64,000 nucleotides of DNA, from the IMG/VR virus record IMGVR_UViG_3300044799_000154, positions 32,001 to 96,000 of that record; one strand, 5' to 3'. Below, piece by piece: positions 313 to 31,390 of the stretch (positions are counted from its first letter, which is position 1; each line of letters begins with the position of its first letter). Source of the stretch: a virus. Position numbers and translations under genes: made by a program. The notes beneath the pieces are model-generated. The model worked only from the letters and a program-made list of their open reading frames with translations, did not search any database and was not told the origin of the DNA.

Positions 313-833
313 GTGAAGATATCAATCCATCTAGAAAAGAACAAAAGCAGCATATCTATGAGGCTTATATTGATGGTTCTGGAGTTTGGATGGATGAGAA
401 TGGAAAGCTACAAGAACCTCTATATGGATTCCTAATAACAAAGAAAGGATTTTTCATGGAACCAGACTCTATAATTAATAATCCTTATCCTCCTGTCATT
501 GTTCAAGCTACAAATAAAACAACAAATAATCAAGCAGAATATCTAGCTTTGAAAGAACTTATTGAGTGGTTACCTGATAGTTCTGTTGTTAAAGTGTTCT
601 CTGACTCTACTTTAGTTGTTGCTCAATTAGGAGGTCTCATCAAAGGAGTATATACGAAATGGGAATGCAGACATCCAGAATTGAAAGTACTCAAGGCTAA
701 TATTGAAGCTAGAATTATAGAGAAGCAATTGGCTATTAATCTGGAATGGGTGCCGAGAGAAAAGAACAAGTTTGGTCTAATCCTTCAGAGAATAAATGAA
801 CGAGCAGCTAACAAACGGAGAGGAAAGAAGTGA
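309..833 (+). CDS. rnhA: ribonuclease HI-like protein; N-terminal NPSRK tag
   Basis: Motifs YIDGS, TNNQAEY, VFSDSTLVV, WVPREKN typical of archaeal/bacterial RNase HI. Confidence 0.85.
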   Translation: MSEDINPSRKEQKQHIYEAYIDGSGVWMDENGKLQEPLYGFLITKKGFFMEPDSIINNPYPPVIVQATNKTTNNQAEYLALKELIEWLPDSSVVKVFSDSTLVVAQLGGLIKGVYTKWECRHPELKVLKANIEARIIEKQLAINLEWVPREKNKFGLILQRINERAANKRRGKK

Positions 834-1039
834 CAGAACCTCAGCTTCATCACCATGAGAAGAAGAAATATCCATGGAAGAAAGCTATGTTACCAATGAT
901 AGGCAGAACTTGTTCAACTGCTGGATGGTTAGGCTTACTATATTTCTTAACATGGAATGAAAATGCAATAGGAATCATTCTTGCTATTGTTCTAATTATT
1001 TTAGGAGATTTCCTAGATGTCTACTCGTACTACTCTTAA
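830..1039 (+). CDS. small membrane protein
   Basis: Two hydrophobic segments; GTGA overlap with upstream stop. Confidence 0.6.
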   Translation: MTEPQLHHHEKKKYPWKKAMLPMIGRTCSTAGWLGLLYFLTWNENAIGIILAIVLIILGDFLDVYSYYS

Positions 1040-1244
1040 ACTAGAAAACTTGAATAATCCTTCGTGCAGGTACTCATTAAAATTAAATCCTAAAACTACT
1101 AAAGCTTTAGTTCCTGATGTTATTATGAATACCATAGTTGAAGCAGCTAAGGTCTCTGCTACTATAAGAGACTTGTATGTTCAAGAAATAATATCTGTTC
1201 CTAAAAAGGAATTCAATCCATCAAGACGTGATTCAAATTGTTAA
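1017..1244 (+). CDS. hypothetical protein with two NPSxR tags (NPSCR, NPSRR)
   Basis: ORF in operon-like overlap; tags at 1056 and 1215. Confidence 0.6.
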   Translation: MSTRTTLKLENLNNPSCRYSLKLNPKTTKALVPDVIMNTIVEAAKVSATIRDLYVQEIISVPKKEFNPSRRDSNC

Positions 1245-1564
1245 ATCCATCCAAGAGAAATGAGAAAGCTAAGTTCCTAATCCATATTGGGAACGGCTTC
1301 ATAGTGGATTCATATTGCGTTAGACTTGATAAGCTAGAGCCTCCTATGTTTGGAGCAAATAGTCCTGAGGACTGGTTGATAGAGATATGCCATGATTATA
1401 TATATCAGAGAAATCCAACTGATTCTTGTTACTATAAATCTTTCATAGTTGAACTAGAAGTAAAATTAGTCACTAGAGATAAGAGATATGATAGTTCTTC
1501 AACTATAATTAAATTGAAAGAGAGAATCTTTGGAAACAGCAAATTAAAGATGTGGAAAAAATAA
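1238..1564 (+). CDS. hypothetical protein, N-terminal NPSKR tag
   Basis: TTG start, MLNPSKR. Confidence 0.6.
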   Translation: MLNPSKRNEKAKFLIHIGNGFIVDSYCVRLDKLEPPMFGANSPEDWLIEICHDYIYQRNPTDSCYYKSFIVELEVKLVTRDKRYDSSSTIIKLKERIFGNSKLKMWKK

Positions 1565-1590
1565 ACCCTTCAAAGAGAGATAAACAATGA
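1552..1590 (+). CDS. possible 12-aa micro-peptide (V/M)EKINPSKRDKQ, or -1 frame extension of 1238-1564
   Basis: GTG...ATA AAC CCT TCA AAG AGA...TGA; stop overlaps the ATG of the 1587 ORF. Confidence 0.35.
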   Translation: MEKINPSKRDKQ

Positions 1591-2267
1591 CATGGATATG
1601 TATCAGAAATATACCTCCAGATTTGTATGGAATAAATTTAGAGAAGTGGAAAAGAGAACAAACTAGAACTCTCTGGGTCAAAAGGGAAGTTCCCAATGAC
1701 CAACTTGAAGATTATGTTAAGAGAGGAGCTAGAGTTATTCAAACCAAAGACTTAACCACTATTCTAGAAGAACCTTCAACCAAATCTGATACTGCTGGAA
1801 AGATATTCAAAGATATTCTTATCAAAGACAGAGTTGATAATGAAATATATGCTGATTTATTGAAGAGCTTTGGATGGATTCCTAAACAGATTGGAAACCC
1901 CAATCTATCATACTATTCTGCATTAGATGAGCAGAAAGTTCAAGCTCATTTCATAGTTGTGGAGAAAGGAGTAAGAATAATCAAAACGGAAACGAGAATT
2001 GTTAGAGCAGGGTCACAAGAAATAGTTTACATCTTAGCTAAGAAAGAACCAATAAACGGTCTTATCTCAGTCTCCTATGTTCGTGGAGCAGAAGGGATAT
2101 ATAAATACGATTCAGCAACTCTCTGCCGTAGAGAAGAAACAAAGAAAGACATGGATGGCAATCCAGTAATTCTTGATAGGGCTAAGATTCCAGAAACTTA
2201 TAATTTGCCAAGGATACTAAATATAGATGAAGCTAGAATAAAGAAGAAAATCTTTGAGGATGATTAG
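1587..2267 (+). CDS. hypothetical protein
   Basis: 226-aa ORF abutting the next gene. Confidence 0.7.
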   Translation: MTWICIRNIPPDLYGINLEKWKREQTRTLWVKREVPNDQLEDYVKRGARVIQTKDLTTILEEPSTKSDTAGKIFKDILIKDRVDNEIYADLLKSFGWIPKQIGNPNLSYYSALDEQKVQAHFIVVEKGVRIIKTETRIVRAGSQEIVYILAKKEPINGLISVSYVRGAEGIYKYDSATLCRREETKKDMDGNPVILDRAKIPETYNLPRILNIDEARIKKKIFEDD

Positions 2268-2657: not shown

Positions 2658-2887
2658 ATTCATGCAGAGGATGTAAATATAAAAAAATACAAGAGCTCTG
2701 TGGGCATTGTACAGAGAATCCATCTAGAAGAAAAGATAAAATAGAAGAGAAAACACCATGGGGATTAGAGATAGACGGAAAGATAAGGATATCAGTCCAA
2801 TCTGTGACAGTGCAACTAGCAGACCTGAAGATTCTTCAAACAAAGATGCACAGGGAACTGCTAAAATCATTGAAGCGAAGATATTGA
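2636..2887 (+). CDS. Cys-rich hypothetical protein with NPSRR
   Basis: CxxC...CxxC followed by ENPSRR. Confidence 0.6.
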   Translation: MATKNKVNSCRGCKYKKIQELCGHCTENPSRRKDKIEEKTPWGLEIDGKIRISVQSVTVQLADLKILQTKMHRELLKSLKRRY

Positions 2888-3468
2888 CTGAAGAAGTAAC
2901 ATATCCTTGTCCTAAATGTGGACATTACTACAAGCCATTCATGCATGACAGAGATGGTTTTGCTCTAATGCTCTGTGAGACCTGTAATTGTCAATATAAG
3001 ACATCTACTCGTGTATCTGCTAACTTTAGGAAATTCTGTCAGAAACTTGGTTCTGCTCCTAATAGAAGTCCAACATATTATACTTCTTCAGAAGGAGTTG
3101 TTCAAAGATTCTTGGTGAGCCAAGGATTGAAAGAAGGATTGGATTTCTTCCATAATGCAAGAGTTGGTCCGTTTATCAATGATAACAATCATAAAGTCTA
3201 TTTCTGGTGTGACTTTGTTATTCCCAAATATACTCTTGTCTTAGAAGCTTCTCCCCATATTTGGCACAAAATGTGGAATAGAGAACAAGCAGACAGTCGA
3301 AAAGAGTTATGCTTAGGTAACCTAGGATGGAAAGTAGTTAATCTTGATGAAAAGGACTTACATCAATTGAACAAGATACGCAAAGAGAAGAAGTATCCTA
3401 AGACTGAAAGAGTAAAAGAGATTTATGGAATATTTGGATGTGAGAAGAAGTATGTCAAATACCTTTAA
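2884..3468 (+). CDS. Zn-ribbon + DUF559/Vsr-like PD-(D/E)XK endonuclease
   Basis: CPKC/CETC, then WCDFVI...LVLEASPHIWH...DSRKELCLGNLGWKVV; probable TTG start at 2884 (ORF track start 2758). Confidence 0.7.
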   Translation: MTEEVTYPCPKCGHYYKPFMHDRDGFALMLCETCNCQYKTSTRVSANFRKFCQKLGSAPNRSPTYYTSSEGVVQRFLVSQGLKEGLDFFHNARVGPFINDNNHKVYFWCDFVIPKYTLVLEASPHIWHKMWNREQADSRKELCLGNLGWKVVNLDEKDLHQLNKIRKEKKYPKTERVKEIYGIFGCEKKYVKYL

Positions 3469-3730
3469 CCCTTCTATGAGAAAACAACTAAGAAAGATTA
3501 TAGATAAAATAGAGATAACTTGGAGTTATCATCTTGCTCATCGGAATGCTCACCATAGAGGTAGACTTGCTAAATGTTATTCACTGCATATTATCTGCCA
3601 TTTGAAGAATTCCAAATGGAAGGATACTCATCTATATTTCTCAGACTTGGAATATAGTATGAAAGACCTCAAGAGAATGGAATATGAATTCACACAGATG
3701 AAAAAGTTCTTTGATGAGGTAGAACCATAA
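3452..3730 (+). CDS. hypothetical protein, N-terminal NPSMR tag
   Basis: MSNTFNPSMRK; ORF track start 3425. Confidence 0.6.
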   Translation: MSNTFNPSMRKQLRKIIDKIEITWSYHLAHRNAHHRGRLAKCYSLHIICHLKNSKWKDTHLYFSDLEYSMKDLKRMEYEFTQMKKFFDEVEP

Positions 3731-3927
3731 TGGCACATTATTTCAATCCTTCTGCTAGACACAACTTTCCAACTAAGCATCAAGAGAATAAGATGCTAGT
3801 AGTTTATTGTCGTTGTGGATTCATGATGAGCTATGACCTTTTCACAGATACCTTTGAATGTCAGAAATGTGGTCTACGTTGTACTCCTGAGGCTCTAACA
3901 AGCTTTATAAGGAAAAGATTTAAATAG
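3730..3927 (+). CDS. small Zn-ribbon protein, N-terminal NPSAR tag
   Basis: CRCG...CQKCG. Confidence 0.65.
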   Translation: MAHYFNPSARHNFPTKHQENKMLVVYCRCGFMMSYDLFTDTFECQKCGLRCTPEALTSFIRKRFK

Positions 3928-3940
3928 CAAGAGAAACAAT

Positions 3941-4192: not shown

Positions 4193-4208
4193 TTGAGTGG
4201 ATAAAAAA

Positions 4209-5081: not shown

Positions 5082-5417
5082 ATGAGGATGTCATTGAAAT
5101 TAGAAGACGTTCTAATCCTTATTTCTGTTAAGATAGAGGAGATTAAAGCAACTTTACCAGATAATGGTAGAAGACTAGAATATAAGTGCTTCATCCTCAC
5201 ACAAGAGCAATGGAAAGTCCTTTGTAAAGATGTAACTTTTAAGAATGAGGCAGACCATGGAAATGCTAATCTTGGTGGTATCCCTGTCAAATTTGATGCT
5301 AATTTATCTGAGATGAAGATTGAATACTTTCAAACGGAGAAGCAAAGAAAGTATTTTCGATTGAAAAGGTCAAGAAAACATGACGTATCAGAAAAGAAGA
5401 TTCAATCCCAACTATAG
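5082..5417 (+). CDS. hypothetical protein, weak resemblance to an HK97 capsid-protein segment
   Basis: FILTQEQWKVL...LGGIPVKFD pattern. Confidence 0.55.
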   Translation: MRMSLKLEDVLILISVKIEEIKATLPDNGRRLEYKCFILTQEQWKVLCKDVTFKNEADHGNANLGGIPVKFDANLSEMKIEYFQTEKQRKYFRLKRSRKHDVSEKKIQSQL

Positions 5418-5769
5418 ATTCCCTCATCAGAGAACTGATGACAAGGTGTTGAAAAGTATAGCTCTAAGACAACCTAAGTTCCATTATCTTAGGAATCTAG
5501 AGAAAGTTGGTGGACTTGATGGAATGAGTCTTGACTTTGGAGTATGTTGGATATGTTGGATACGCATAACAGGAGAAGGATTGAACAATTGGAGAAAAGA
5601 ACCATTCTCTGAAAATCGAAGTCATTCTGGTATTTGTCCATTATGTTTACAGGAGAAATGGTCTGGACGAGTATGGTATCCTAAACGATTTGTAATGTAT
5701 ACAGAAATAGGTAATCCAAGTAGAAGAGATAATATAGCACCTGAGATGAGAAGTAAATGCTTGACTTAA
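5380..5769 (+). CDS. Zn-finger protein with NPNYR and NPSRR tags
   Basis: CWIC...SHSGICPLC. Confidence 0.6.
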   Translation: MTYQKRRFNPNYRFPHQRTDDKVLKSIALRQPKFHYLRNLEKVGGLDGMSLDFGVCWICWIRITGEGLNNWRKEPFSENRSHSGICPLCLQEKWSGRVWYPKRFVMYTEIGNPSRRDNIAPEMRSKCLT

Positions 5770-7008: not shown

Positions 7009-7260
7009 GTGAGAAGCATTGCAATAGTAGAAGGAACTTGGGTTAAATTCCTAGAAGATCACAAAGTTATTTTAGGAAAAGTAGAAAAGAAAGATTCAAA
7101 TAAACCTTTGAGCCAAGATAACTTCTGGATTAAAACTAAAAGAGGATTTTATCAACCTAATCTTGAAGATATCATTTATGCATTTCCAAAGATTATTTTG
7201 AAAGACAAACTCAAATCTAAAATAAATCCATCTTTAAGAATCCAAAGAGGTTATCCATAA
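7009..7260 (+). CDS. hypothetical protein, C-terminal NPSLR tag
   Basis: 83-aa ORF. Confidence 0.6.
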   Translation: MRSIAIVEGTWVKFLEDHKVILGKVEKKDSNKPLSQDNFWIKTKRGFYQPNLEDIIYAFPKIILKDKLKSKINPSLRIQRGYP

Positions 7261-7526: not shown

Positions 7527-8617
7527 GAAAATATTATCACCCAGGAATATTCCTAGACACAGACAAATCTTTGATATATGAAATAGAGATTCCTGTATTG
7601 CCAGGAAAACCTTATGCAGAAGTAATGCACATTGGAGACCTCCACATTGGACACAAAGACTTTGCTCCAAGATTCTTAGCCAAATACTTAGCATTCCTGA
7701 AAGCTACTCCAGAGAGAAGAGTAGTTATGATGGGCGATTATTTCGAACATGAAGAAGGTACAAACTTTGTGCATGAGCAAGTAATGGATTTCACTACTCA
7801 AGTAAAAGAATTTGTCAAGTTCTTCACTCCTGTCAGCAAACAAATAGTCTCAATGATTTATGGAAACCATGATGAAAGATATTCAAAGCAAACTGGTTCA
7901 GGAATTGACTTGCTAGATTATCTGAGATTGAAAATAGGAAATCCAGACATCTTCATTGCTCCTCCACAAAGAGGATTGATAATAATCTTCAAAGTAAAGA
8001 ATCCAAATGGTGGATACTTTATTTATCCTGAGTATACTTTGCATTCTTCAACAGGAGCAATAGTTAATGTAGAATCTCAATTTAGGAGAACAGCAGATAA
8101 CTTCGATGTCCCCATCATAGCCCATGGTCACACTCATAAGATATTCTGGAAGGAGAATACACGATTTCTAGTTGCTGAAGATGAGAATGGAAGCTTCTCA
8201 AGAGCAGTTGTTAGACAATATTGGATTTCAACTGGATGCACTCTTAGATTTCCTTCATATGGAGAAACCAAATCAATGCCAGTTCCAGATATGGGATGTC
8301 CCATTATTCGTCTGTATGCTGATAGACATGCAGTTGAATATGTAGACCCAAGAACTACTTATGGATTAGACCAAGAACCTTTCACTGAGAGCTATGAGAA
8401 AGAATTAGGAGAAAGATTAGAAGACCCTCAAGATAAAGAGAAAGAACAAGCAAGTGAATGTGATACAGTAGATTCTCAGGAATTAGATGAAATCAAGAAT
8501 CTTAGATGTCCCGAATGCAGTGGTTATAAAATAGGTTCTAAAGGAACTGAATGGGTCTGTAAGTCTTGTGGAAAAAGATGGGTAAAGAATCCTAGAAAAG
8601 ACAAGAAGCATGAATAG
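7523..8617 (+). CDS. calcineurin-like metallophosphoesterase with C-terminal Zn ribbon
   Basis: GDLHIG, MGDY, GNHD, GHTH motifs; CPEC...CKSC. Confidence 0.85.
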   Translation: MRKYYHPGIFLDTDKSLIYEIEIPVLPGKPYAEVMHIGDLHIGHKDFAPRFLAKYLAFLKATPERRVVMMGDYFEHEEGTNFVHEQVMDFTTQVKEFVKFFTPVSKQIVSMIYGNHDERYSKQTGSGIDLLDYLRLKIGNPDIFIAPPQRGLIIIFKVKNPNGGYFIYPEYTLHSSTGAIVNVESQFRRTADNFDVPIIAHGHTHKIFWKENTRFLVAEDENGSFSRAVVRQYWISTGCTLRFPSYGETKSMPVPDMGCPIIRLYADRHAVEYVDPRTTYGLDQEPFTESYEKELGERLEDPQDKEKEQASECDTVDSQELDEIKNLRCPECSGYKIGSKGTEWVCKSCGKRWVKNPRKDKKHE

Positions 8618-8960
8618 AATGTCCTCAACCTCGCCATTAGCTGATGAGATACTAAAGAAGAAAATGGATTGCTCTAGTCAGAACTATAATTTGGAAGCTG
8701 TCTTTATCAATCCAATTGACCTAATCTCCTTACTAACTGATATTAGATTCGAAGATGTTAGTTACTATGCACAGAAGAATGCTCCTCTAGATAGAGGCGA
8801 GGTAGGAATGATTCTAGGAGTCAAGATTATAGTCTCAACTAATGTCCCTCTTCACAAACTTCTATTTTCTGTGAATATGGGAGGATATAGAAGTGTTCAA
8901 GGTCCAGCGTGGGATAAAGAGATAGATGAGCAAGTAAATCCGAGTAGGAGAGATAATTAA
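8610..8960 (+). CDS. short protein resembling an HK97-fold major capsid protein fragment; C-terminal NPSRR tag
   Basis: VFINP...LL.D..F...GEVGMILGVKIIVSTNVP. Confidence 0.55.
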   Translation: MNRMSSTSPLADEILKKKMDCSSQNYNLEAVFINPIDLISLLTDIRFEDVSYYAQKNAPLDRGEVGMILGVKIIVSTNVPLHKLLFSVNMGGYRSVQGPAWDKEIDEQVNPSRRDN

Positions 8961-9269
8961 ATGTTTGACAACATTTTAGATTGGTGGATATTAATTATGA
9001 CTATCGTGAATGTAGTAGTCATTGGTGGATTCTCATTACTTAGAACTTACTATCAACGTAAGGCTCTTAAAGTCCAAGAAGAGACTCTGAAAGAATCAAG
9101 AGAATATTGGAACTCTTGGCAGAAAAGGTCTCAGAACATTAAAGTAGAAATGAAGGATGAAATGAAGAAGGAAGAGAAAGTTGAAAAAGAGTCTAAAAGA
9201 GTTGACAAGAGAAATAGAGCAAATAAACGCAAGACTCAAAGAGATAAAACTGGAAAAGACCAAGCTTGA
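8961..9269 (+). CDS. membrane-anchored coiled-coil protein
   Basis: N-terminal TM helix, charged tail. Confidence 0.6.
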   Translation: MFDNILDWWILIMTIVNVVVIGGFSLLRTYYQRKALKVQEETLKESREYWNSWQKRSQNIKVEMKDEMKKEEKVEKESKRVDKRNRANKRKTQRDKTGKDQA

Positions 9270-9612
9270 GACAGAGATTGAACATCTTGAGGATTCTATG
9301 GCTAAAGAGAAAGGGAAGATTACGACAGCTAACATTAATATTAAGAACTTTACAACTAGACGTTTGAAATCTAGAAAAGAGAGGAATAGAATAGTGAGAG
9401 AAGAAGATAATCTTGAGCAGACTGAAAAAGTCAAGAAGAAACAACTGGACAAAGCTAAGAAAGAGTTCTTTGAAAGCATGAAAAACCAAAAGGACTTTAC
9501 AACTGAGAAATATGGTCCAGATTATCTTCAAGATTTGGGTAATCTATTGATAGAGAATGGAAATAGCCATAATAAGAAGAAGGAGGAAAAGAAAGATGAA
9601 AGCACGAAGTAA
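9181..9612 (+). CDS. coiled-coil protein
   Basis: Heptad-rich charged sequence. Confidence 0.55.
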   Translation: MKKSLKELTREIEQINARLKEIKLEKTKLETEIEHLEDSMAKEKGKITTANINIKNFTTRRLKSRKERNRIVREEDNLEQTEKVKKKQLDKAKKEFFESMKNQKDFTTEKYGPDYLQDLGNLLIENGNSHNKKKEEKKDESTK

Positions 9613-9937
9613 TCCTTGTCCTGTTCCATGTGAAGAAAAAGAATCTGTTTCTAGGACACGATTTGGAAGACTAAAGAGAACTTTTCGAAATTTCAAGAGA
9701 AGAATATCAAAAGAGAATAAGAAAACTAAGATTAAAAGTGGTGGTCTCATGAGAGGTCAATGGAATCAAAAAGATTTGCCTAAAATCGTAAAGAAAATTG
9801 TGGATAACAATCTTGGAATCACTGACATAGAAATTTATTCTAATGAGATTCGTTGGCATTGTGAGATTAATTATTTTGACTTATTCCCTAAGAAGAAAGG
9901 AAATGAAAATCCAAGTAAAAGGGATGAAAATGAATAA
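9557..9937 (+). CDS. hypothetical protein, C-terminal NPSKR tag
   Basis: Ends ENPSKRDENE; true start may be downstream. Confidence 0.55.
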   Translation: MEIAIIRRRRKRKMKARSNPCPVPCEEKESVSRTRFGRLKRTFRNFKRRISKENKKTKIKSGGLMRGQWNQKDLPKIVKKIVDNNLGITDIEIYSNEIRWHCEINYFDLFPKKKGNENPSKRDENE

Positions 9938-10140
9938 TGGGAAAAAGATGTTTAGATATTAAGTGTCCTTATCTCGCATATGATGGGACTTGTCTAATGT
10001 CAAAAGGAGAACTAGCAGATAATTGTCCAGCGAGAGAGAATCTTAGAAATGAATCTAAAGATGTTTGGATAACTAACCTCAAATACGTTAAGAAGAATGG
10101 TAATCCTTCAAAGAGAAAGAATATGAAATTGGTGAGTTGA
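9937..10140 (+). CDS. Cys-rich small protein, C-terminal NPSKR tag
   Basis: C-x4-C...C...C; GNPSKR. Confidence 0.6.
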   Translation: MGKRCLDIKCPYLAYDGTCLMSKGELADNCPARENLRNESKDVWITNLKYVKKNGNPSKRKNMKLVS

Positions 10141-10587
10141 ATGAGAAAAAGACAAAGAAAGGGAAAAGCTGGAGAAGATAAGGCTGATCTGGAAGATACC
10201 AATACCAAGGTTAACCATGAGCCTACTGATCAGCAACTCAAAGAGTTCATTGCAAAGAAGAAAGGAAAAGAAATCACAGAAAGAGTAGAAACATTTGAAC
10301 CCATAGAACAAGCTGGTGTTGAGAAAGCTAAGATTCTTCAAGTTTCTGAAGAACAACCAAGAAAGAAAATGATTTTATCTAAGATGACTGAAGAAGAGAA
10401 AGAAATGTTTAATGCTAGGAATGAATGGATACGAGAACAAAGACGCAAAGCTTCAATAGAGAAAATACTCGAAAAAATGGGAAAGAACAAGTATTCAGGA
10501 TTAATAGGTCAGAAAATAAATATCATGGGAGAACTTTACGAGGTAAAAGCCATTGGAAGAAAACCAAAAGATACAAGAACCAAGTAA
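10141..10587 (+). CDS. hypothetical charged protein
   Basis: 148-aa ORF. Confidence 0.6.
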   Translation: MRKRQRKGKAGEDKADLEDTNTKVNHEPTDQQLKEFIAKKKGKEITERVETFEPIEQAGVEKAKILQVSEEQPRKKMILSKMTEEEKEMFNARNEWIREQRRKASIEKILEKMGKNKYSGLIGQKINIMGELYEVKAIGRKPKDTRTK

Positions 10588-10981: not shown

Positions 10982-11346
10982 AAAGTGAGAACTTGGAAAG
11001 AAGACCAAAACAATGGGGAGAAGAGATAGTTTGTATTGATGAGCCAGAGTATGCTATGAAGATTCTAAAGATAAAGAAGCTTCATCATACTTCAATGCAT
11101 TATCATCCTACCAAGAAAGAAACTTTCTATGTTCTTGAAGGAGAACTCAAAGTTCATCTTCAAACTGGTTGCTGTGGTAGCTTCTGTCCTGTAATGAAAG
11201 ACCAAACATATACAATTCTTCCAGGTACTAAGCATAGTATTCATGCAGTAATGGATGCTATTATAATTGAAGTCTCTACTCAACCAAAGGATGACTCTAT
11301 TAGGATTGAAAGCCAACAAGGTGAAGAAATTGCAACAAAGAACTGA
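10933..11346 (+). CDS. cupin-domain protein (mannose-6-phosphate isomerase / sugar isomerase-like)
   Basis: KQWGEE, SMHYHPTKKETFYVLEG, HSIHA, IIEVST; probable start TTG at 10993. Confidence 0.8.
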   Translation: MDVLCCPNEKRKYASLESENLERRPKQWGEEIVCIDEPEYAMKILKIKKLHHTSMHYHPTKKETFYVLEGELKVHLQTGCCGSFCPVMKDQTYTILPGTKHSIHAVMDAIIIEVSTQPKDDSIRIESQQGEEIATKN

Positions 11347-11518
11347 GTCCTGGGATATTAGAGGATGGTCTCTCCAACAAATAAAAGACAAACTTAATGG
11401 TATTTTTAGAAGAAAAGAAATTGCTATAGAAGAGATTCATGTTACCCCTCAGACTTTACGAATTAAATATTATGAGAAAGAGTCAAATGAAGTGGTGAAT
11501 CCTAGTAAGAGGTATTAA
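11267..11518 (+). CDS. hypothetical protein, C-terminal NPSKR tag
   Basis: Ends VVNPSKRY. Confidence 0.55.
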   Translation: MKSLLNQRMTLLGLKANKVKKLQQRTESWDIRGWSLQQIKDKLNGIFRRKEIAIEEIHVTPQTLRIKYYEKESNEVVNPSKRY

Positions 11519-11519
11519 G

Positions 11520-12182
11520 ATGGAAACAATAATCCTAGCGGGTGGTTCTGGAAAACGACTGAGGCTGGAGACAAAAACACCAAAGCCACTTCTCAAGCTG
11601 AATGGAACAACATTAATAGATTATCAATTGAAGTGGTTATCCTCTTATGGGTTTGATAAGTTCTATGTTCCCAGTCATGATAAAATTAAAACCAAAACTC
11701 CTATTGTTTGGATTAAAGAACCAAAGGAGAAATTGGGGACAGGAGGAGCAATTAAGATAGCTCTTCAGAAAGTTCAAGATTCTAGAGTCTATATTATGAA
11801 CGTAGATGACATCGTATTCTATGATCCAAATACGCTTGTTAAGGAAGCATATCTTGGAGGGTCAATCTTAGTAACCAAACCAGTCTCAGGATTTGGAAGA
11901 GTAGAATTTGACAATGCTGATAATGTCTCTCAGTTTGTTGAGAAACCAGAGATGCCTTGGAGTACAAGTTGTGGACATTATGCAATGAAGAGAGATGTTC
12001 TTATGAAGTATCTTCCAGATAAAGGAGATATCGAAGTATGCACTTTCCAGCCTATGGCTACTGCTAAGTTATTGAGAGTTTTAGAGTACAACGGAACGTG
12101 GATAACAATAAATACATTTAAAGATTTAGATAAAGCAAGAGGAGAATTACATGCAACTAAAGCTCTCACCTTATACCTTTAA
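11520..12182 (+). CDS. sugar-1-phosphate nucleotidyltransferase
   Basis: IILAGGSGKRL...PKPLL, LGTGGA, FVEKP motifs. Confidence 0.85.
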   Translation: METIILAGGSGKRLRLETKTPKPLLKLNGTTLIDYQLKWLSSYGFDKFYVPSHDKIKTKTPIVWIKEPKEKLGTGGAIKIALQKVQDSRVYIMNVDDIVFYDPNTLVKEAYLGGSILVTKPVSGFGRVEFDNADNVSQFVEKPEMPWSTSCGHYAMKRDVLMKYLPDKGDIEVCTFQPMATAKLLRVLEYNGTWITINTFKDLDKARGELHATKALTLYL

Positions 12183-12333
12183 ACGATATACTTATCCAAA
12201 CAAAGTAGGATGGCTTGGTTGGATAGAAACTAACAAGGATACTATTTATATAGATCTTCAAGGTAAGATGTATCATTGGAAACTAGAAAAGGTTTCTTGT
12301 AATAAAGTATTCAATCCCTCTTATCGTTGGTGA
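12151..12333 (+). CDS. hypothetical protein, C-terminal NPSYR tag
   Basis: Ends VFNPSYRW. Confidence 0.55.
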   Translation: MQLKLSPYTFKRYTYPNKVGWLGWIETNKDTIYIDLQGKMYHWKLEKVSCNKVFNPSYRW

Positions 12334-14640: not shown

Positions 14641-14651
14641 GGAGGAAGAAT

Positions 14652-20792: not shown

Positions 20793-21055
20793 CAACTATT
20801 AGAGAAAGAATAGAAGATGACCAGTTCTTTCCATGGGTTATTAATCATTTTGTAAAACATAAAGGGCAAGTTCCACTTTGCTGTTTTTCCAATAAGAAAA
20901 CAAAGAAAGGGTGGGTTTTAAACTGCACTTGGTTACGGTCTCAAGGAGTAAAAGACCTCTCTTTTAAAGAGTTCCAAGTCAAATGTTTAGAATGTCAGAA
21001 AGAGATTGAAAAGAAAATAAGAGAATGGGATGAAGCTTATGGCAAAAGTTCATAG
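20789..21055 (+). CDS. hypothetical protein
   Basis: TTGA overlap. Confidence 0.55.
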   Translation: MTTIRERIEDDQFFPWVINHFVKHKGQVPLCCFSNKKTKKGWVLNCTWLRSQGVKDLSFKEFQVKCLECQKEIEKKIREWDEAYGKSS

Positions 21056-21278
21056 ATATAAACACGGAAAGGGAGAAAGGATAACTGTTCTAAATAACAA
21101 TGGCACAGTAGGAGCCGTCATCTATATAGACAAAAAAGGTAATGTTCATTGTGATAGCTGGATTAATTACAATCAAACCAACAAGAAGAAATTTGATGGG
21201 GCTATGTATGATGATTCTAAATCTAAATCCAGAAAATTTGATCCATCTTATAGGGAATGCAAAGGATTGATATCATGA
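21030..21278 (+). CDS. hypothetical protein, C-terminal DPSYR tag variant
   Basis: FDPSYR. Confidence 0.55.
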   Translation: MKLMAKVHRYKHGKGERITVLNNNGTVGAVIYIDKKGNVHCDSWINYNQTNKKKFDGAMYDDSKSKSRKFDPSYRECKGLIS

Positions 21279-21838
21279 GTTTACATCCAATTGATAGGCA
21301 AAAGAAGAATTGGACTGATGAAGAATTAGAAAAGATGTTTATATTTTGTCTATTAGATAGAGCAATGCCTTATGAAAAAGTATGCAAAGCTTTCAATCAT
21401 TTAGATCAATGTGGATTAACTACAAGAAATGGACTTAAACGAATATCTTATCCTTACAAAGATGAAGCACATATTGCTAATAAATTACGAGAAGTCGGCT
21501 ATCGCTTTCCTAATCAAACTGCTAAATTTCTAATGTTATTCGTTTCTAATCCAATTGATTTGAGAAATGCGTCCAGAGATGAGATTGCAGAGAATGTTAA
21601 GGGAATAGGGTATAAACTTGCTTCAATGTTCTTAAGAAATACTCGTGGAGAAGAATATGCTGTCTTAGATGTTCATGTCAAAAGATGGCTCAAAGAGAAA
21701 GGCATCCTATTCAAGAAATACAAAGATCAGGAAAGAGCATTCCTGAGTTTGGCTAGAGCTATGGGTAAAACTCCCTATGAGTTAGATATGGAAATATGGC
21801 AGGAACGTAGAATTGGGAACAAAAATAAATCCAAGTAA
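21257..21838 (+). CDS. ogg: 8-oxoguanine DNA glycosylase/AP lyase (HhH-GPD, Ogg2-type)
   Basis: GYRFPN, VKGIGYKLASMFLRN, AVLDVHV, LDMEIW. Confidence 0.85.
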   Translation: MQRIDIMSLHPIDRQKKNWTDEELEKMFIFCLLDRAMPYEKVCKAFNHLDQCGLTTRNGLKRISYPYKDEAHIANKLREVGYRFPNQTAKFLMLFVSNPIDLRNASRDEIAENVKGIGYKLASMFLRNTRGEEYAVLDVHVKRWLKEKGILFKKYKDQERAFLSLARAMGKTPYELDMEIWQERRIGNKNKSK

Positions 21839-22049
21839 AAGATATCAAGGTTCTCTTCCTTCTTTAGCTTTATATTTAGAAGCTTTGAAAGATGGAAATA
21901 ACAAATGTGTTTGTTGTGGTTATCCAGTTCAACTTTCTAATGTTTCTTCTTTCTCAAGAAGATACGTTAACTTCAAATGGCAATGGTTTCTGATATGCAA
22001 AAATGATTATTGTGAAAGAATGGAAAGAAGTGGAAAGTATGCGGATTAA
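21813..22049 (+). CDS. Zn-finger protein, N-terminal NPSKR tag
   Basis: MGTKINPSKR; CVCCG...C..DYC. Confidence 0.6.
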   Translation: MGTKINPSKRYQGSLPSLALYLEALKDGNNKCVCCGYPVQLSNVSSFSRRYVNFKWQWFLICKNDYCERMERSGKYAD

Positions 22050-22203
22050 TCCCAGTAGAAGATTTCAAAAAGAAGACTTCTATTGTTATCTAGAAGCAGA
22101 TTCTCTTGTTATTACGAAAGAAGAACTCACGGAGTTAGAATCATTAAAAATAGATATTCTAAGAACGTATCATATTAAGAAAATTAGGAGGAAAGAAATA
22201 TGA
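22039..22203 (+). CDS. small protein, N-terminal NPSRR tag
   Basis: MRINPSRRF (ORF track start 22003). Confidence 0.55.
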   Translation: MRINPSRRFQKEDFYCYLEADSLVITKEELTELESLKIDILRTYHIKKIRRKEI

Positions 22204-22271: not shown

Positions 22272-23249
22272 ATGCCACAAGAAACTGATGTAGTTAAGAG
22301 ACTAAAGAAAGGTATCAATCTCCTTTACATGCATGATGATGCAGATGGTATTACCTCTGCTGTTCTTTTAAGCCATGCGTTTCCTGTCAAAGAAGTCTTC
22401 TGTCCTGAAGACTTTGGAGAATGGGCAGCAAAGGCAGATATTGCAAAGAAATACATTCCGCCAGATGTTGCTGTTGACATGGTTCCAAAAGATCCAGAAT
22501 GGGCTGGTCTATGTATAGATCATCACCCTACTCATCCTGCAAGCAATGTGAGAAAATATACTTTAGTCTGGGATGGAGGATATCCTGCAACAGGCATTAT
22601 TTACAATCTCTTCAAAGATTATATTCCACCAGAACATCATTGGAAGATGGTTGTAGGCTTAGTTGGGGATGGACAGGCTGATTTGATTCCACCTGAGATT
22701 TGGGCAAAGTGTCCAAGTTTGCTAGATGGTTATGGATCGGTCTATGAAAAGTATGGGAAGGTAACAATCTATAAACTCCCAGTGTATCTCAAACTCTCCT
22801 CGTTTATCAATGCTCCTTGTAAGATACCTGACAAGTGGTATACAGGATATCAAATTTTGAAGAATGCTAAAGAACCTTTGGATATCATAGAAGACCCTGC
22901 ATTAAGAGCAGCTAAAGAAACTGTAGATGAAGAATACAAAAGAGTTATGCGGGATTCGGCACCTATTGAATTTCCTAATCTTAGAGTATGGAGACTATCT
23001 TCAGACTATAAGTTGGAAAGAACAATAGCATGGAAAGCAAGTGAGATAGACCAAAAGACTTGTCTTATTGTAAACACAAAAACAGGGCGTATGTCGTTGC
23101 GAGGAGTATTAAGTCTAGTAATTTATGAGGAATTGAAAAAGATGAATTACAACATAAATGGACATCCAGGCTTTGGGGGCGGAAAGCTAACAAAGAATCA
23201 GTCACCAGAGCAATTAATCCGAGATTTAAGAAAGATCAAAATAATCTAA
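22272..23249 (+). CDS. DHH-family phosphoesterase (RecJ/GAN/Cdc45-like)
   Basis: HDDADG, VD, IDHH, GLVGD, GHPGFGG motifs. Confidence 0.85.
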   Translation: MPQETDVVKRLKKGINLLYMHDDADGITSAVLLSHAFPVKEVFCPEDFGEWAAKADIAKKYIPPDVAVDMVPKDPEWAGLCIDHHPTHPASNVRKYTLVWDGGYPATGIIYNLFKDYIPPEHHWKMVVGLVGDGQADLIPPEIWAKCPSLLDGYGSVYEKYGKVTIYKLPVYLKLSSFINAPCKIPDKWYTGYQILKNAKEPLDIIEDPALRAAKETVDEEYKRVMRDSAPIEFPNLRVWRLSSDYKLERTIAWKASEIDQKTCLIVNTKTGRMSLRGVLSLVIYEELKKMNYNINGHPGFGGGKLTKNQSPEQLIRDLRKIKII

Positions 23250-23265: not shown

Positions 23266-24333
23266 ATGGATAAAGAATTCATAAATAGGTGGGTTAAAAG
23301 CACCAAAAAACCACTCAAAGAACTAGAGAAGAAATTTGATGAGATATGTATGGAGGTTGATAGACTCCATGCAGAGAAATCAGATTTGGAGAGAGAAAGA
23401 ATCTCTAAGGTTCTATTCCGTAAAGAAATGGGAAGAGAACTTTACTCTAAATCAAAACCAGACACATACTTCGGTTTCATCCTTGGAACAAACCGAGCCT
23501 TTGACATAAATGAAAACTATAGACGCAAAGCACTTGCTCGTGCAAGAGAAGATCCAGTTCAAGCACAACTTGAGGGATTGATTGATGAGCAAGGTACACC
23601 TCTGGACCCAAGAGAAAAGTTAGGAACTAGGGATAACCCCAACTTCCATAAGCCTCTGACTGAACATCTTTGGACTCGCAAGGTCTATGGTATTGCTCAG
23701 AAAGAAGGAACTAAGGGTCCTCTAGTATTCGTCATGTCATTATGGCGAGCTAGTGCAAAGAACTTTACATACAAACCATTTGTACCTGTAGAGTTTAAAG
23801 CTCTAACAAAGGACATGAAGAAAGGATACTACACTCTAAATGTATCTACACAGACCAAGTTCCAGGTCACAAGGAAAGAAGTGGACTTCGAGAAGTGGAT
23901 TAGAGATGCTTCTAAAGTGGTAGCATTGGCTGATCTGAAAAAGATAGCAGGACAGCACATGAAAGAGTTTGATTTCTTCATTGTCACGGAGGGAGACGTG
24001 GATCTCATTCGTCCCGAAGTAAATGCAAACACAAACAGCAGAAGTATCATTCTATCAGATGCCGATTCTGGCATGATAGAAACTGTAAGACTGTTCCTAT
24101 CAGCAGACTTTCCAATAGGCTTCTCAGAACTTAGCAGAGTACTTGTGCTAGGAAAGCCTCGACTCTGGAAGAGAAATGATGAAGATGAGGAACAAGTCAG
24201 CATGGAAGCATTTTCAATATACCCATTGCCAGGCAAGACTGTAACTGGAGTAGAAGCACCAACTGAAAACATACCCACTGAAGGTGAAGATGAAGGTCCC
24301 ATCGTGGAATTCGTTGAAGAACCTGAGAAGTAA
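23266..24333 (+). CDS. putative single-stranded DNA-binding (OB-fold) protein
   Basis: Replication-module context, OB-like beta pattern (IILSD...VRLF...RVLVLGK), acidic C-terminal tail. Confidence 0.5.
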   Translation: MDKEFINRWVKSTKKPLKELEKKFDEICMEVDRLHAEKSDLERERISKVLFRKEMGRELYSKSKPDTYFGFILGTNRAFDINENYRRKALARAREDPVQAQLEGLIDEQGTPLDPREKLGTRDNPNFHKPLTEHLWTRKVYGIAQKEGTKGPLVFVMSLWRASAKNFTYKPFVPVEFKALTKDMKKGYYTLNVSTQTKFQVTRKEVDFEKWIRDASKVVALADLKKIAGQHMKEFDFFIVTEGDVDLIRPEVNANTNSRSIILSDADSGMIETVRLFLSADFPIGFSELSRVLVLGKPRLWKRNDEDEEQVSMEAFSIYPLPGKTVTGVEAPTENIPTEGEDEGPIVEFVEEPEK

Positions 24334-26807: not shown

Positions 26808-26817
26808 GGATAAGAAG

Positions 26818-27561: not shown

Positions 27562-27575
27562 AGGAAGGATGCACA

Positions 27576-30362
27576 ATGAAAATTATACCAAATGAGAAGA
27601 TCTGTATCAATTGTTGGGAATATCTAAACCTGCCAAATGCTCAGAAAGAGGTTGTTCCTGTAATCTTTGCATGGTACAGAGATTACCAAAAGAATAGAAA
27701 ACGTCTTGTTTTTCGAGGCTTTGAACCTTATTGCTATGTAGATCAAAGTATTAGAGTGCCTCAATTCTTCTATCACAAGGAAACTGGAGAAAAAGAGAAG
27801 CTTGTTAAACGATTAGAGACAACCCGAATTAGAGATCCAGGTAATCCTATGTTATTGAAAGTATTCACATTCTTACCCTCTCAAGTTAGAGCTATTAGAA
27901 TTCTTCTTGAATCACAAAATCCTCCTTTAGGAGATCATATCTTTGAAGCAGATATAGAATTTATCTATAGATTTATGATAGACAAGAAGATTAGATTCGC
28001 ATTGGAAAGGACACCTTCTGGGTTCTTACCAATAGAAGAAGAGATTCCTTCAAATCTCAAATATGTCTTTCTAGACTTTGAAGTTTATACTAATAGAAAG
28101 CCTGATCCTAGAAAACTTAGGATAGGAGAGAAAGTTATCTGTGCTACTCTCTGGGATAATTATTCTAAGATATATCATCTTTTCTACGAATATTCTAGAC
28201 AATTAACTTTACCTTCATTTGGTTCAAATGTTGTAGTCCATTATTGTGTGAATGAGAGAGAACTCCTTAAATCAGTTACAAAATATCTGATGGAACAAGA
28301 CCCAGATATCATTGCTGGATATAACATTGATTGGGACTTAACATGTCTTATCAAGACTATGGAACAACGGTATAAGATGTCTCCAGATGTTATTAGTCCA
28401 CTCAAGAAAGTTAAGATACGCAATTCCAAGAAGAGACTTGGAGATATTCTCATTAATGCTCCTCGTGCTAGGATATGGGGTAGAAGTACATTAGACCTTC
28501 TGGAACTTTACATGAAGATGCATCTTTCTGGATTAGAAGAAATGACATTGGAATATGTAGCTAAACTAGAGAAACTTCCAATTCAGAAGATTGTTGTTCC
28601 TGACTTCTTTGATACATGGAATAAGAATCCTGAGTTGATTATTAGAAGGAACTTAGGAGATGTTCAGATTTATGTGGAATTAGAGAAGAAACTCAATCTC
28701 ATTAGATTTGCAGATGAACAGAGAAGACTAGTAGGCTGTAGATTAGAAGATACTCTCTCATCAAAGAAGATGTTAGACTTATTCATGATGAGAATGAAAG
28801 ACAAGAAGATAATGCCTACAGCTAGAAGTCGAGGAGCTAAGTATATTGGAGCTTATGTTAGAGATCCTATCTCTGGAATGTATTCCTGGGTTATACAATT
28901 AGACTTCTCTGCTCTATATCCTACTATAATGATATGCTTCAATATTGATCCTGATACTTTCAGAAATCCTCAGTTCTATAAGGGATCAGAGGATTTATTC
29001 AGATTAGATGAGAGCCATGCTTTTGTTAAAGATCCAATTGGTCTTATTCCTAAGATGTTAAAGAAACTGCTAGAGCTAAGGGCTCAGAAGAAGCAACTTC
29101 AAGTAGAAGCTTTAGCTAAGAATGATGATGAAGCCTACAAGATGTATAACTTACAGGAAGGAGTAATCAAAGTTCTGAGCAATGCATTGTATGGAGTTAT
29201 GGGTTATAGGTTTAGAAAAGGAAGTAAGGAAACGGTAGAGTCAGTAACTTTAATGGGCAGAAGTCTCATCACTTTTGTAGCTGAAAAATTAATTGAATCT
29301 AATAGGAAAGTAATATATGGTGATACAGATTCAGTCTTCTTTGAAGCAAAAGGAAAGAGTTTAGATGAGTGTCTTGTAGAAGCAAAAGAAATACAAGCAA
29401 TGATTCATGCAAAGTTACCTGAATTCTTAGCTAAGTTTGGAGTAACAGGAGAACAGCCATTTAATATTGAACCTGCTCAAATTTATTCTGCTTTCTTCAT
29501 ATTGGAAGCTAAGAAAAGATATGCAGGAAAGATTGAATGGGATTCCAAAAGAGGGACCAAACTTAACTATAGGTACAATATCAAAGGTCTGGAAACAAGA
29601 AGATCAGATCTCTCGGTATTAGGAAAGAGAATTCAGAAAGAAGTAATACATAAGCTTCTAGAGAAGACTTCCAAAGAAGAGATGCTCAAGTTCTTAGAAA
29701 CAGAATTAAGTAATTTTGATACTCTACCATTGACAGAGATTGGTACTCCTTCTGCAATAGGACAGCCATTGAAAGCATATAAAGGAAATGCTATTCAGAA
29801 AACTTCTGCTGAATATTCCAATAACTTCTTACACACTCAATTTGATGTTGGATCTAAACCCAAAAGAATTGCAATAAAAGGAGTTCCTCCTCGAATAGAA
29901 CAATCAGAAATTCTAGTAGGTTTACCAAAAGGACAAATTTATAGAGTCAAGAATGTTCCTTTGTCTGAAATAACAAAGTTAGAGATGGGATACTTAGATA
30001 TCAAGAATAAACTCAAAAGTTATCATGCAGATGGATCTTTTGTTCTGGATCTTGAAGCTAAAAATCAAACTATCTCAATTAGTTATTTGCAAGGATATTC
30101 AGATACTCATTCTATAGCTATAGATTATGGTATAGTTCCACCTCCAGGATTCCAGATAGATTATTTGAAGATGTTGGATTCAACAGTAAAAAAGAAGATT
30201 GAGAAATTAATTGCTATGATTGGAATAACTTGGGAAGAAATCAACCTAAAGCCTGAATTGAAGATTGTTCCCAAAGTTCCAAAGAAACGAAAAGAAAAAG
30301 TAGATAAAAAAGGAAAGATAAAAGATGACAAGCAAAAAACCCTTAGCCAATTCAAGTGTTGA
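27576..30362 (+). CDS. polB: family B DNA polymerase with C-terminal PIP box
   Basis: LDFE (ExoI), GYN, DFSALYPT, KVLSNALYG, YGDTDS, KKRY, KGLE; QKTLSQF at C-terminus. Confidence 0.95.
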   Translation: MKIIPNEKICINCWEYLNLPNAQKEVVPVIFAWYRDYQKNRKRLVFRGFEPYCYVDQSIRVPQFFYHKETGEKEKLVKRLETTRIRDPGNPMLLKVFTFLPSQVRAIRILLESQNPPLGDHIFEADIEFIYRFMIDKKIRFALERTPSGFLPIEEEIPSNLKYVFLDFEVYTNRKPDPRKLRIGEKVICATLWDNYSKIYHLFYEYSRQLTLPSFGSNVVVHYCVNERELLKSVTKYLMEQDPDIIAGYNIDWDLTCLIKTMEQRYKMSPDVISPLKKVKIRNSKKRLGDILINAPRARIWGRSTLDLLELYMKMHLSGLEEMTLEYVAKLEKLPIQKIVVPDFFDTWNKNPELIIRRNLGDVQIYVELEKKLNLIRFADEQRRLVGCRLEDTLSSKKMLDLFMMRMKDKKIMPTARSRGAKYIGAYVRDPISGMYSWVIQLDFSALYPTIMICFNIDPDTFRNPQFYKGSEDLFRLDESHAFVKDPIGLIPKMLKKLLELRAQKKQLQVEALAKNDDEAYKMYNLQEGVIKVLSNALYGVMGYRFRKGSKETVESVTLMGRSLITFVAEKLIESNRKVIYGDTDSVFFEAKGKSLDECLVEAKEIQAMIHAKLPEFLAKFGVTGEQPFNIEPAQIYSAFFILEAKKRYAGKIEWDSKRGTKLNYRYNIKGLETRRSDLSVLGKRIQKEVIHKLLEKTSKEEMLKFLETELSNFDTLPLTEIGTPSAIGQPLKAYKGNAIQKTSAEYSNNFLHTQFDVGSKPKRIAIKGVPPRIEQSEILVGLPKGQIYRVKNVPLSEITKLEMGYLDIKNKLKSYHADGSFVLDLEAKNQTISISYLQGYSDTHSIAIDYGIVPPPGFQIDYLKMLDSTVKKKIEKLIAMIGITWEEINLKPELKIVPKVPKKRKEKVDKKGKIKDDKQKTLSQFKC

Positions 30363-30516
30363 CGATCTAATAGAAATGCTTAGAAAGTATAAAGAAGAGA
30401 AAGAAGCTAGAGACTTTCTTATGAGGATTCTATTAGAGCATCCAGAGAAGAAAACCGAAATGGATGAGGAATTGTGGAAGAAGAAGACTAATCCATCGAA
30501 GAGGAATAATAAATGA
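30325..30516 (+). CDS. small protein, C-terminal NPSKR tag
   Basis: Ends TNPSKRNNK. Confidence 0.6.
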   Translation: MTSKKPLANSSVDDLIEMLRKYKEEKEARDFLMRILLEHPEKKTEMDEELWKKKTNPSKRNNK

Positions 30517-30794
30517 CGGGAAAGATAAAGTATGGGTTCCATGAATTACGCAATAAAAACCCAAATAAGTATACCAGAGAACTTTATAAAGTCAATTTAG
30601 ACTATAAACAAAAGAAAATAATTCGTAGTCTGAATTCTTATTATAATAATAAAACTTGGATGGTTAGAAATTGTATTACATGTGGTAGATTCTGCTCTAA
30701 GTATTCTAGTAAGTACTGCAAAGATTGTGCAGTAATCTTTCATATAATTGATTCTAGAATTGGAGCTTGTGAACAAAGGAGGAGGCAAAAATAG
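30513..30794 (+). CDS. Zn-finger protein
   Basis: CITCG...YCKDC. Confidence 0.55.
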   Translation: MTGKIKYGFHELRNKNPNKYTRELYKVNLDYKQKKIIRSLNSYYNNKTWMVRNCITCGRFCSKYSSKYCKDCAVIFHIIDSRIGACEQRRRQK

Positions 30795-30797
30795 TTT

Positions 30798-31223
30798 ATG
30801 AAAATCTTCACGAGATATCCAAGAATATGTATGCGTGAGAAGAAAGTAGTCTTCTCAGAAGAAGAATTATTGGATAATATCCGAGAAGGAGCTCAAAATA
30901 GAAAGCAATGTATAATGAGCTTATACTCCTTTGAAGAAGTCTATGATAAGAAAGTAAGACCAGAGACTGCTGTTATTGATTGTGCTATGTGGATTGGAGA
31001 TAGAGCATTCTGTGAAAGTAAATGTAAATTATTTCCACATGATTCATCTCTCGTTATTGATGAAGGCAAGGATCATTTAGCTATTGTCTTCAAGAACTTT
31101 ACACGAGAACAATTACAAAGTTTAAATGCCTGTACAGAGTTAGATATTATGATTGTTGTGCCTGGTTGCTTGAACCTCCGCACAGGCAAGAAATGTACTA
31201 TCGTCAAGAGGAATAACATTTGA
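30798..31223 (+). CDS. degenerate AEP primase small-subunit-like protein
   Basis: YPR...SLYSF...AVID and PGCLNLRTGK resemble viral PriS termini; no DxD catalytic motif. Confidence 0.45.
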   Translation: MKIFTRYPRICMREKKVVFSEEELLDNIREGAQNRKQCIMSLYSFEEVYDKKVRPETAVIDCAMWIGDRAFCESKCKLFPHDSSLVIDEGKDHLAIVFKNFTREQLQSLNACTELDIMIVVPGCLNLRTGKKCTIVKRNNI

Positions 31224-31390
31224 AAATAATAGATAAAATTGCGAGTACAGTAATTTTAAATACAGGTGAAAATATTCAAATAGGACCAATATTACTAATG
31301 AATACAGCATCTGGAAAGAAATTACGAATCTCAATAGAAATATCTGAAGAAATAAATCCATCTGGGAGAAAAGAAAATGAAGAAACCTAA
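31220..31390 (+). CDS. 56-aa protein with C-terminal NPSGR tag (not in ORF track)
   Basis: TTG start overlapping the upstream stop; ...EEINPSGRKENEET. Confidence 0.55.
   Translation: MKIIDKIASTVILNTGENIQIGPILLMNTASGKKLRISIEISEEINPSGRKENEET

Follow-up and report, generated by a model that had tools for sequence, protein, structure and literature searches.

A terminal five-residue peptide, N-P-S-x-R, shared by some 70 small proteins of a probable Bathyarchaeia virus as a candidate address label

Why would the same five residues, N-P-S-x-R, stand at or near the ends of dozens of small, unrelated proteins of one virus? The question is raised by a 64,000-nucleotide stretch of DNA (the window, to which positions refer unless they are given as genome positions), which is 32001–96000 of the single 121,517-nucleotide virus record IMGVR_UViG_3300044799_000154 (G000; 35% G+C), and in which an original prediction, made from the letters alone, had read the peptide (hereafter the tag) as an acquired address label. 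Genes of archaeal viruses are mostly small orphans without a functional handle. The record, from an uncultured archaeal head-tail virus, encodes an HK97-type major capsid protein, a large terminase and a portal, its virion genes lie on the − strand from about 81 kb (genome), and it also holds a glycosyltransferase-rich (glycan) island and a long + strand block, whose products include eRF1-like, Toprim, PAPS-reductase-like and ParB-like proteins, topo IB, RNR, RadA, an ERCC4 nuclease and PolB. We infer the host, probably a member of the Bathyarchaeia, from the topo IB: the cellular homologues nearest to it, at about 55% identity, carry the name Bathyarchaeia in the records they come from.

A six-frame regular-expression scan located all 27 NPSxR-type sites and all four variants that had been listed in the window, every one on the + strand, with none after 31355 or on the − strand, where just three NPSxK occur (36965, 37738 and 39270). 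Across the whole record there are 74 NPSxR copies on 70 open-reading frames (ORFs), every one of them on the + strand and within genome positions 11–63355, a range that ends exactly at the start of the glycan island; the observation is real, and the tagged set is larger than the about 26 proteins first noticed in the window. ORF calling relied on a simple greedy script instead of a trained gene finder, and the ORFs were divided into an “early” set of 149 + strand ORFs (20,786 amino acids) and a remainder of 67 ORFs (18,506 amino acids), the late and virion proteome. The early ORFs contain 72 copies, where 2000 within-protein shuffles averaged 0.16 and never exceeded 3, in line with the earlier estimate of well under one chance copy, and the remaining 67 ORFs contain none. 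No other gapped word is nearly as over-represented as NPS.R, and 72 of the 76 NPS tripeptides in the early set run on as x-R. Tagged ORFs make up 70 of the 149 early ORFs, about half of the small accessory proteins, and the tag is absent, as had been noted, from topo IB, RNR, PolB, RadA, the glycan island and the virion genes.

A short word repeated at gene boundaries could in principle be a DNA element, such as a promoter, a recombination core or a protein-binding site, that reads NPSxR by accident, and besides the position of the tags at gene boundaries the almost constant AATCC would fit such an element. The codons contradict it: serine in the 74 tags is encoded by AGT (25), AGC (1) and TCN (48), arginine by AGR (55) and CGN (19), and all four proline codons occur, with the AGY/TCN and AGR/CGN proportions close to synonymous usage in the early ORFs. 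On the + strand of the block AAYCC occurs 193 times, 74 of them in tags, and the other 119 compare with 108 expected from a first-order Markov model. The flanking bases carry no signal beyond a T at position −2, which is contributed by the hydrophobic codon before the tag, the flanks share no DNA similarity and no DNA repeat family was found beyond the 15-nucleotide core. All 74 copies fall in an ORF, and with no − strand copy there is no nucleotide-level conservation independent of frame. The signal is a peptide and not a nucleotide sequence, as the original prediction had argued from mixed serine and arginine codon families, and we give the DNA reading practically no credence. A link between the tag and the sole tRNA gene of the record, a tRNA-Ser(GCU) at genome 10316–10404 (+), directly 3′ of a GNAT acetyltransferase gene (9759–10316), was also considered and rejected, as AGY makes up 26 of the 74 tag serine codons against 31% in the early ORFs, which is no enrichment.

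The fuller consensus is hydrophobic-N-P-S-[K/R]-R-[D/E], with four fixed residues, N, P, S and R, and a free x; the position in front of the tag, where a hydrophobic residue had been noticed, holds F, I, M, L or V in 48 of 73 copies. Placement is terminal, as predicted: 70 of 74 copies are near an ORF end, 50 of them within 15 residues of the stop (six of these end the protein), 16 within 20 residues of the first start and four within 12 residues of a nearer in-frame start. As a test between one tag per junction and one tag per protein, junctions with a tag on both sides (3–4) and proteins with two tags (2) are too close to a rough, hand-calculated expectation of about 6 each to be discriminating. 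Median length among the 70 carriers is 85.5 amino acids, and an all-against-all BLASTP of the 216 ORFs links just two pairs among them, which agrees with the earlier remark that they share nothing else. The recognisable ones are an RNase H (PF00075), a 116-residue fragment of the capsid protein and a paralogue of a small virion-module protein; an 83-residue paralogue family has only two database matches. A predicted membrane segment occurs in one of the 70, the tail-anchored ORF 13582–13821, where the segment is C-terminal, at the far end from the tag (NPSKR, 13603–13617, 7 residues from the start and kept in the related contig L005, described below).

Structure models cover two of the 70 carriers. 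In the AlphaFold model of the RNase H (ORF 309–833), the N-terminal tag (NPSRK, 324–338) is residues 6–10, within a coil of residues 1–12 with a predicted local distance difference test score (pLDDT) below 50, and the fold begins at residue 16. The model of the second carrier, from one family, is of low confidence (mean pLDDT 62) and has the tag between two short helices. That model, together with the two paralogous pairs, could be taken to mean that the tag descends from one very old paralogous family or is an NPS helix cap, with no common reader. Tags at either end of folds as unrelated as RNase H, a capsid-protein fragment and a nuclease argue the opposite; where the tag closes the protein, as in some carriers, no residue follows for it to cap, and orthologues fold without the tag. 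We regard shared ancestry or capping as extremely improbable.

Is the tag maintained? The related metagenome contig L005 (topo IB 87% identical) has seven tags within 11.5 kb, and each of the five NPSxR tags of the window with an orthologue there is kept, at 47–68% protein identity and with indels beside the tag. For five tagged ORF pairs with L005, those with a computable synonymous rate (dS), the ratio of non-synonymous to synonymous substitution rates (dN/dS) is 0.27–0.33, and these five are therefore real coding genes. Further away, G001 and G002 are complete IMG/VR records of 120.7 kb and 156 kb with a terminase just 29% identical to that of G000; NPSx[RK] occurs 8 times in G001 and 11 times in G002, every copy terminal, and three families hold the tag at the same place in G000 and in G001 and/or G002 at 35–50% identity. 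A Cas4-like PD-(D/E)XK nuclease is tagged in both G001 and G002. A family of 25 members drawn from many samples has a mean column identity of 43%, yet all 25 share P and S, 24 have N, and the fifth position is R in 22 members and K in the other 3. The tag is under strong purifying selection. Three records of another clade (G005, G006 and G007) contain no tag, and a cellular control of 79 Bathyarchaeia-type contigs (1,160 ORFs, 232,229 amino acids) contains seven NPSx[RK] against 3.3 expected, four of the seven being the same topo IB position. A scan of a viral contig collection with the alignment of one tagged family matched G001 only.

The same comparison shows the tag coming and going by itself. 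In the families at genome 850, 1262, 5402 and 29324 and in RNase H, the tag sits on an extra terminal stretch in G000 only, and the G001 and G002 orthologues are without that tagged stretch; judged from these alignments, the tag can be gained as a bare terminal extension. Orthologues thus either keep the tag in place or lack only the tagged extension, which answers the earlier suggestion to look for gain or loss of the tag alone. With the codons, the BLASTP comparison and the orthologues, the claim of an acquired, protein-level short linear motif on unrelated proteins holds, whilst the functions proposed along with it (hub docking, co-packaging, a modification or cleavage site) stay hypothetical. 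At genome 1128–1822 (+), the 186-residue ORF 1262–1822 may in fact begin at an internal ATG overlapping the stop codon of tagged ORF 1128–1373, which would place its tag 11 residues from the start, a reading suggested by the G002 orthologue.

On balance we lean towards NPSxR being an address label, a portable short linear motif that a common partner recognises. In the course of evolution about half of the small accessory proteins of the + strand block would have acquired it at a flexible N- or C-terminus, and one trans-acting reader, viral or host, would bind the five residues and handle the tagged set as one class; as four side chains are invariant, a specific pocket is implied, and the reader may be a host protein. 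The proposed outcome would be hand-over to an AAA+ unfoldase or protease and so a scheduled removal of accessory proteins, with the host proteasome with PAN or Cdc48, or a viral membrane LonB, as candidate proteases. Unfoldases require unstructured terminal tags, and a terminal tag that is coil in the RNase H model would fit this guess. The known degrons of AAA+ proteases (ssrA, the ClpX N- and C-motifs, the Lon degrons) are unstructured and, like the tag, short, found at either end and transferable between unrelated proteins, with one machine serving many substrates, and this virus encodes a Lon-family protease. We nevertheless hold timed proteolysis to be doubtful, and what probability the rival readings leave over goes to some outcome not yet thought of.

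Several observations weigh against the label, or against proteolysis as its purpose. Known prokaryotic degrons are mostly non-polar, whereas NPSxR is polar and basic, with four invariant residues in place of a non-polar tail; it is also genome-encoded on about 70 proteins of one virus. RNase H and the Cas4-like nuclease are not obvious enzymes to remove. Four of the 74 copies are internal, the name early for the + strand block is an assumption from gene content and strand, and G010, a 58-kb fragment of a further relative, holds at most one copy, so the label is dispensable in the clade. LonB was rejected as a tag-specific reader, since it does not track the tag: it is present in the tagged G000, G001 and G002 and equally, at 55–58% identity, in the tagless G005, G006 and G007. 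Nor did phyletic profiling of the G000 ORFs against G001, G002, G005, G006 and G007 single out a reader; dozens of genes fit the profile, because G000, G001 and G002 share most replication and virion genes.

The LonB gene itself is complete, with AAA+ and S16 domains, and lies beyond the window end at genome 113801–115975 (−), adjoining the portal gene in the head module; its product is 55–65% identical across the six compared records, whose terminases are only 22–29% identical. Four conserved ORFs of the window (2758–3468, 12338–13585, 22272–23249 and 23266–24333) have no Pfam or PDB sequence match. The ESM Atlas gave leads only, a DUF559-like assignment for a 236-residue ORF (score 0.89) and, for a 415-residue ORF, hypothetical viral proteins, among which 10% of one cluster bore a helicase family.

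The carriers of recognisable function act on nucleic acids (RNase H, the Cas4-like nuclease and a tagged C2H2-like zinc finger family), 23 of the 70 tagged ORFs have at least two CxxC-like pairs and are in this respect zinc-ribbon-like, and tagged genes are interspersed among topo IB, RNR, RadA, the ERCC4 nuclease and PolB. These features would suit a tag that docks nucleic-acid-handling accessory proteins onto a replication, recombination or other DNA-bound hub, where they would gather on viral DNA instead of being degraded, in the manner of the PCNA-interacting peptide (PIP) box, which in archaea also occurs at either end. PIP boxes and other clamp-binding peptides are similar in their extreme terminal placement, in their presence on nucleases such as RNase H and in being modular add-ons. 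The positions of the PIP consensus, Q-x-x-[LIM]-x-x-[FY][FY], are however absent from the tag logo, no viral PCNA was found (PF00705, E-values up to 1), the core replication enzymes are themselves untagged, and seventy clients on one hub, an order of magnitude more carriers, far exceed any known clamp toolbelt. Recruitment of clients to such a hub is in our judgement unlikely.

Might the tag instead load small proteins into the procapsid, by docking them to shell, scaffold or portal, for co-injection with the DNA? An HK97-type capsid protein is encoded, the carriers are small, and it is established that short terminal peptides bring unrelated cargo into HK97-fold shells (for example PMC3012670, PMC9024508). 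Two tagged ORFs are moreover paralogous to virion-module proteins. Against loading, all 74 tags lie in the + strand replication block, with none in or beside the − strand virion module, about 70 cargo species is very many for the capsid of a 121-kb genome, and one carrier is a tail-anchored membrane protein. The T4 capsid-targeting sequence, the P1 Dar signals and the encapsulin cargo peptides resemble the tag as short terminal addresses on unrelated proteins, used with an HK97-fold shell; they differ in that tagged genes here lie outside the virion module, in far more carriers and in tags that are mostly C-terminal, unlike the T4 sequence. We consider loading quite unlikely. A complex prediction between the capsid protein and one tagged family returned a score of 0.00, which is no answer and counts neither way on binding. 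As for the two paralogues, the fragment-like ORF 8610–8960 (NPSRR, 8937–8951, 2 residues before the stop) matches capsid-protein residues 243–299, and ORF 16377–16673 (NPSAR, 16644–16658, 4 residues before the stop) matches a 117-residue ORF at genome 97423–97776 (−); such tagged relatives of virion proteins could possibly be decoys or assembly modulators.

Four invariant polar residues around a free x would also resemble the recognition sequon of an enzyme, and the tag could then be a substrate site, for phosphorylation or glycosylation of the serine, modification of the arginine or asparagine, or a cut, for example at the Asn-Pro bond. Candidate modifiers are encoded by the virus, namely the GNAT protein, two metallophosphoesterases, a transglutaminase-like protein and the large glycosyltransferase set, and in G001 and G002 the GNAT gene is flanked on both sides by tagged genes, which may be chance in a dense region. 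No candidate enzyme tracks the tag, however: the transglutaminase-like gene is shared by G000, G002 and the tagless G005 and G007, and is absent from the tagged G001. Removal of 5–19 terminal residues would moreover have no obvious use, and a substrate site strikes us as improbable. The transglutaminase-like (PF01841) protein has a hydrophobic N-terminus and is encoded at genome 13238–13837 (+).

Terminal tags are by definition within about 60 nucleotides of a gene junction, and the nascent peptide could accordingly act on the ribosome there, slowing or changing termination or early elongation, and in this way adjust the translational coupling of genes in these tightly packed operons. The virus carries translation genes, the eRF1-like gene and the tRNA-Ser, and the x-R codons of many C-terminal tags are purine-rich (AAG AGG, AGG AGA) and resemble, in an unquantified impression, a ribosome-binding site that stands a few bases upstream of the following start, at junctions that include 8937–8963, 14623–14655 and 30490–30516. 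Such an effect is very improbable, since C-terminal tags stand anywhere between 0 and 15 residues from the stop, with no preferred register, N-terminal tags lie downstream of the start they would serve, G001 is tagged yet has no eRF1-like gene, and the tag has no likeness to the upstream part of 2A peptides. The 329-residue eRF1-like protein (genome 11642–12631, +, before the window start) matches eRF1 domain 2 and part of domain 3, and its gene has a copy at 61% identity in G002.

Two known peptides were tried against the tag and rejected. A 2A/StopGo peptide does not match, with no NPG.R in the count and no conservation at the upstream positions, and neither does a twin-arginine translocation (Tat) signal (an N-terminal [ST]-R-R-x-F-L-K ahead of a hydrophobic stretch), as 50 of the 74 tags are C-terminal and one of the 70 carriers has a hydrophobic segment. 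The NPTH loop of FlhB, YscU and EscU and the NPGP of 2A share with the tag an Asn-Pro followed by a small hydroxyl or small residue; theirs function within a folded domain or the ribosome tunnel and depend on H, or on G-P with a conserved D-[VI]-E-x upstream, whereas NPSxR is terminal with Arg at position 5.

A second terminal motif, W-x-K-I-L-(G), lies 6–21 residues from the N-terminus of 22 ORFs in G002 and 8 in G001 (regular-expression scan); the same scan found none in G000 or G007. NPSx[RK] and W-x-K-I-L never occur on the same ORF. One family has a C-terminal NPSxR in G000 and, by contrast, an N-terminal W-E-K-I-L in G002, and in another SPNPSRRKQ of G000 aligns with APWWKTLKQ of G002, although some W-tagged ORFs resemble paralogues and may not be independent of one another. 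One tentative possibility is a clade-wide proteome addressing code, in which interchangeable terminal peptides would mark most accessory proteins for one dedicated handling machine that sorts, loads or destroys the whole class, with NPSxR extended to about 70 proteins here, and NPSx[RK] together with an N-terminal W-x-K-I-L-G serving in the relatives.

Along the window, beyond the copies placed above, the next carrier is tagged at both ends: ORF 1017–1244 has NPSCR (1056–1070) 13 residues from its start and NPSRR (1215–1229) 4 residues before its stop. ORF 1238–1564 (TTG start) follows with NPSKR (1244–1258) at residues 3–7, 29 nucleotides after the previous tag and in another frame. The carrier of NPSKR at 1564–1578 is uncertain, a 25-codon frame overlapping the end of ORF 1238–1564; in this region (1552–1590, +) the tag stands just past an A run, and a tiny ORF or a frameshift, either programmed or an assembly error, is possible. 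NPSTR (2466–2480) is internal to ORF 2268–2657, 66 residues from the start and 58 from the stop, and NPSRR (2717–2731), 27 residues from the start of ORF 2636–2887, is also classed as internal. Two N-terminal copies come next, NPSMR (3467–3481) 14 residues from the first ATG of ORF 3425–3730 and NPSAR (3745–3759) 5 residues from the start of ORF 3730–3927. ORF 5380–5769 carries the variant NPNYR (5404–5418) near its start and NPSRR (5713–5727) 13 residues before its stop, the latter kept in the G002 orthologue.

From here C-terminal copies predominate. NPSLR (7225–7239) lies 6 residues before the stop of ORF 7009–7260, whose paralogue at genome 2928–3179 is tagged too; NPSKR (9908–9922) lies 4 residues before the stop of ORF 9557–9937 and is kept in the G002 orthologue, and NPSKR (10102–10116) lies 7 before that of ORF 9937–10140. 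A single residue separates the tag from the stop in ORF 11267–11518 (NPSKR, 11498–11512) and ORF 12151–12333 (NPSYR, 12313–12327), and in ORF 14302–14640 NPSKR (14623–14637) is the last five residues, kept in L005 beside an indel. NPSRR (16844–16858) is 21 residues before the stop of ORF 16670–16924 and kept in L005. ORF 16939–17175 has two variants, DPSKR (16942–16956) at residues 2–6, which in the L005 orthologue is NPSKR, and an internal NPTKR (17017–17031). L005 also keeps NPSKR (17520–17534), 5 residues before the stop of ORF 17187–17552, and NPSRR (18745–18759), 8 before that of ORF 18517–18786; between them NPSLR (18006–18020) lies 6 residues from the start of ORF 17988–18533. The variant DPSYR (21240–21254) is 7 residues before the stop of ORF 21030–21278, NPSKR (21828–21842) is 5 residues from the TTG start of ORF 21813–22049, and NPSRR (22048–22062) is 15 residues from the first ATG, and 3 from a nearer one, of ORF 22003–22203. 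The last two are NPSKR (30490–30504), 3 residues before the stop of ORF 30325–30516, and NPSGR (31355–31369), 6 before that of ORF 31220–31390, which is the last tag of the genome and directly precedes the glycan island.

The stretch is present in two public DNA runs labelled peat metagenome, either of which may be where it came from, and among the runs listed no RNA run contains it. Neither topo IB nor the capsid protein has a match in the GenBank phage collection, and topo IB, searched as a single protein or as an alignment, has no relative in the viral contig collection.

How new is such a label? Terminal address peptides as a kind are already known. Among the literature matches listed for NPSxR or Asn-Pro-Ser, the topics were aquaporin, glycosylation or unrelated ones, and the passages of a Bathyarchaeia virus paper on Lon, topoisomerase, motifs, release factor and Fuxiviridae (PMC10541130) do not mention the motif. 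The earlier statement that no such system has been described in archaeal viruses fits the literature searched, supplements being outside its scope, and within that scope no account turned up of this peptide, of its placement at either end, of a label on roughly half the accessory proteome of an archaeal virus, or of a swap with a second motif in relatives.

The five-residue label turns some 70 orphan proteins into one experimentally addressable class, for which a single synthetic peptide could capture the reader and reveal the use of the tagged proteins. The motif is also usable to mark accessory genes in metagenomic contigs of the clade, and as a minimal transferable tag it might be reusable as a tool in archaea. 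Its expansion from 8–11 to 74 copies, together with its replacement by a second motif, provides a natural experiment on the spread of a short linear motif through a viral proteome, and the addressing code, if true, would be the first of proteome-wide extent described for any archaeal virus.

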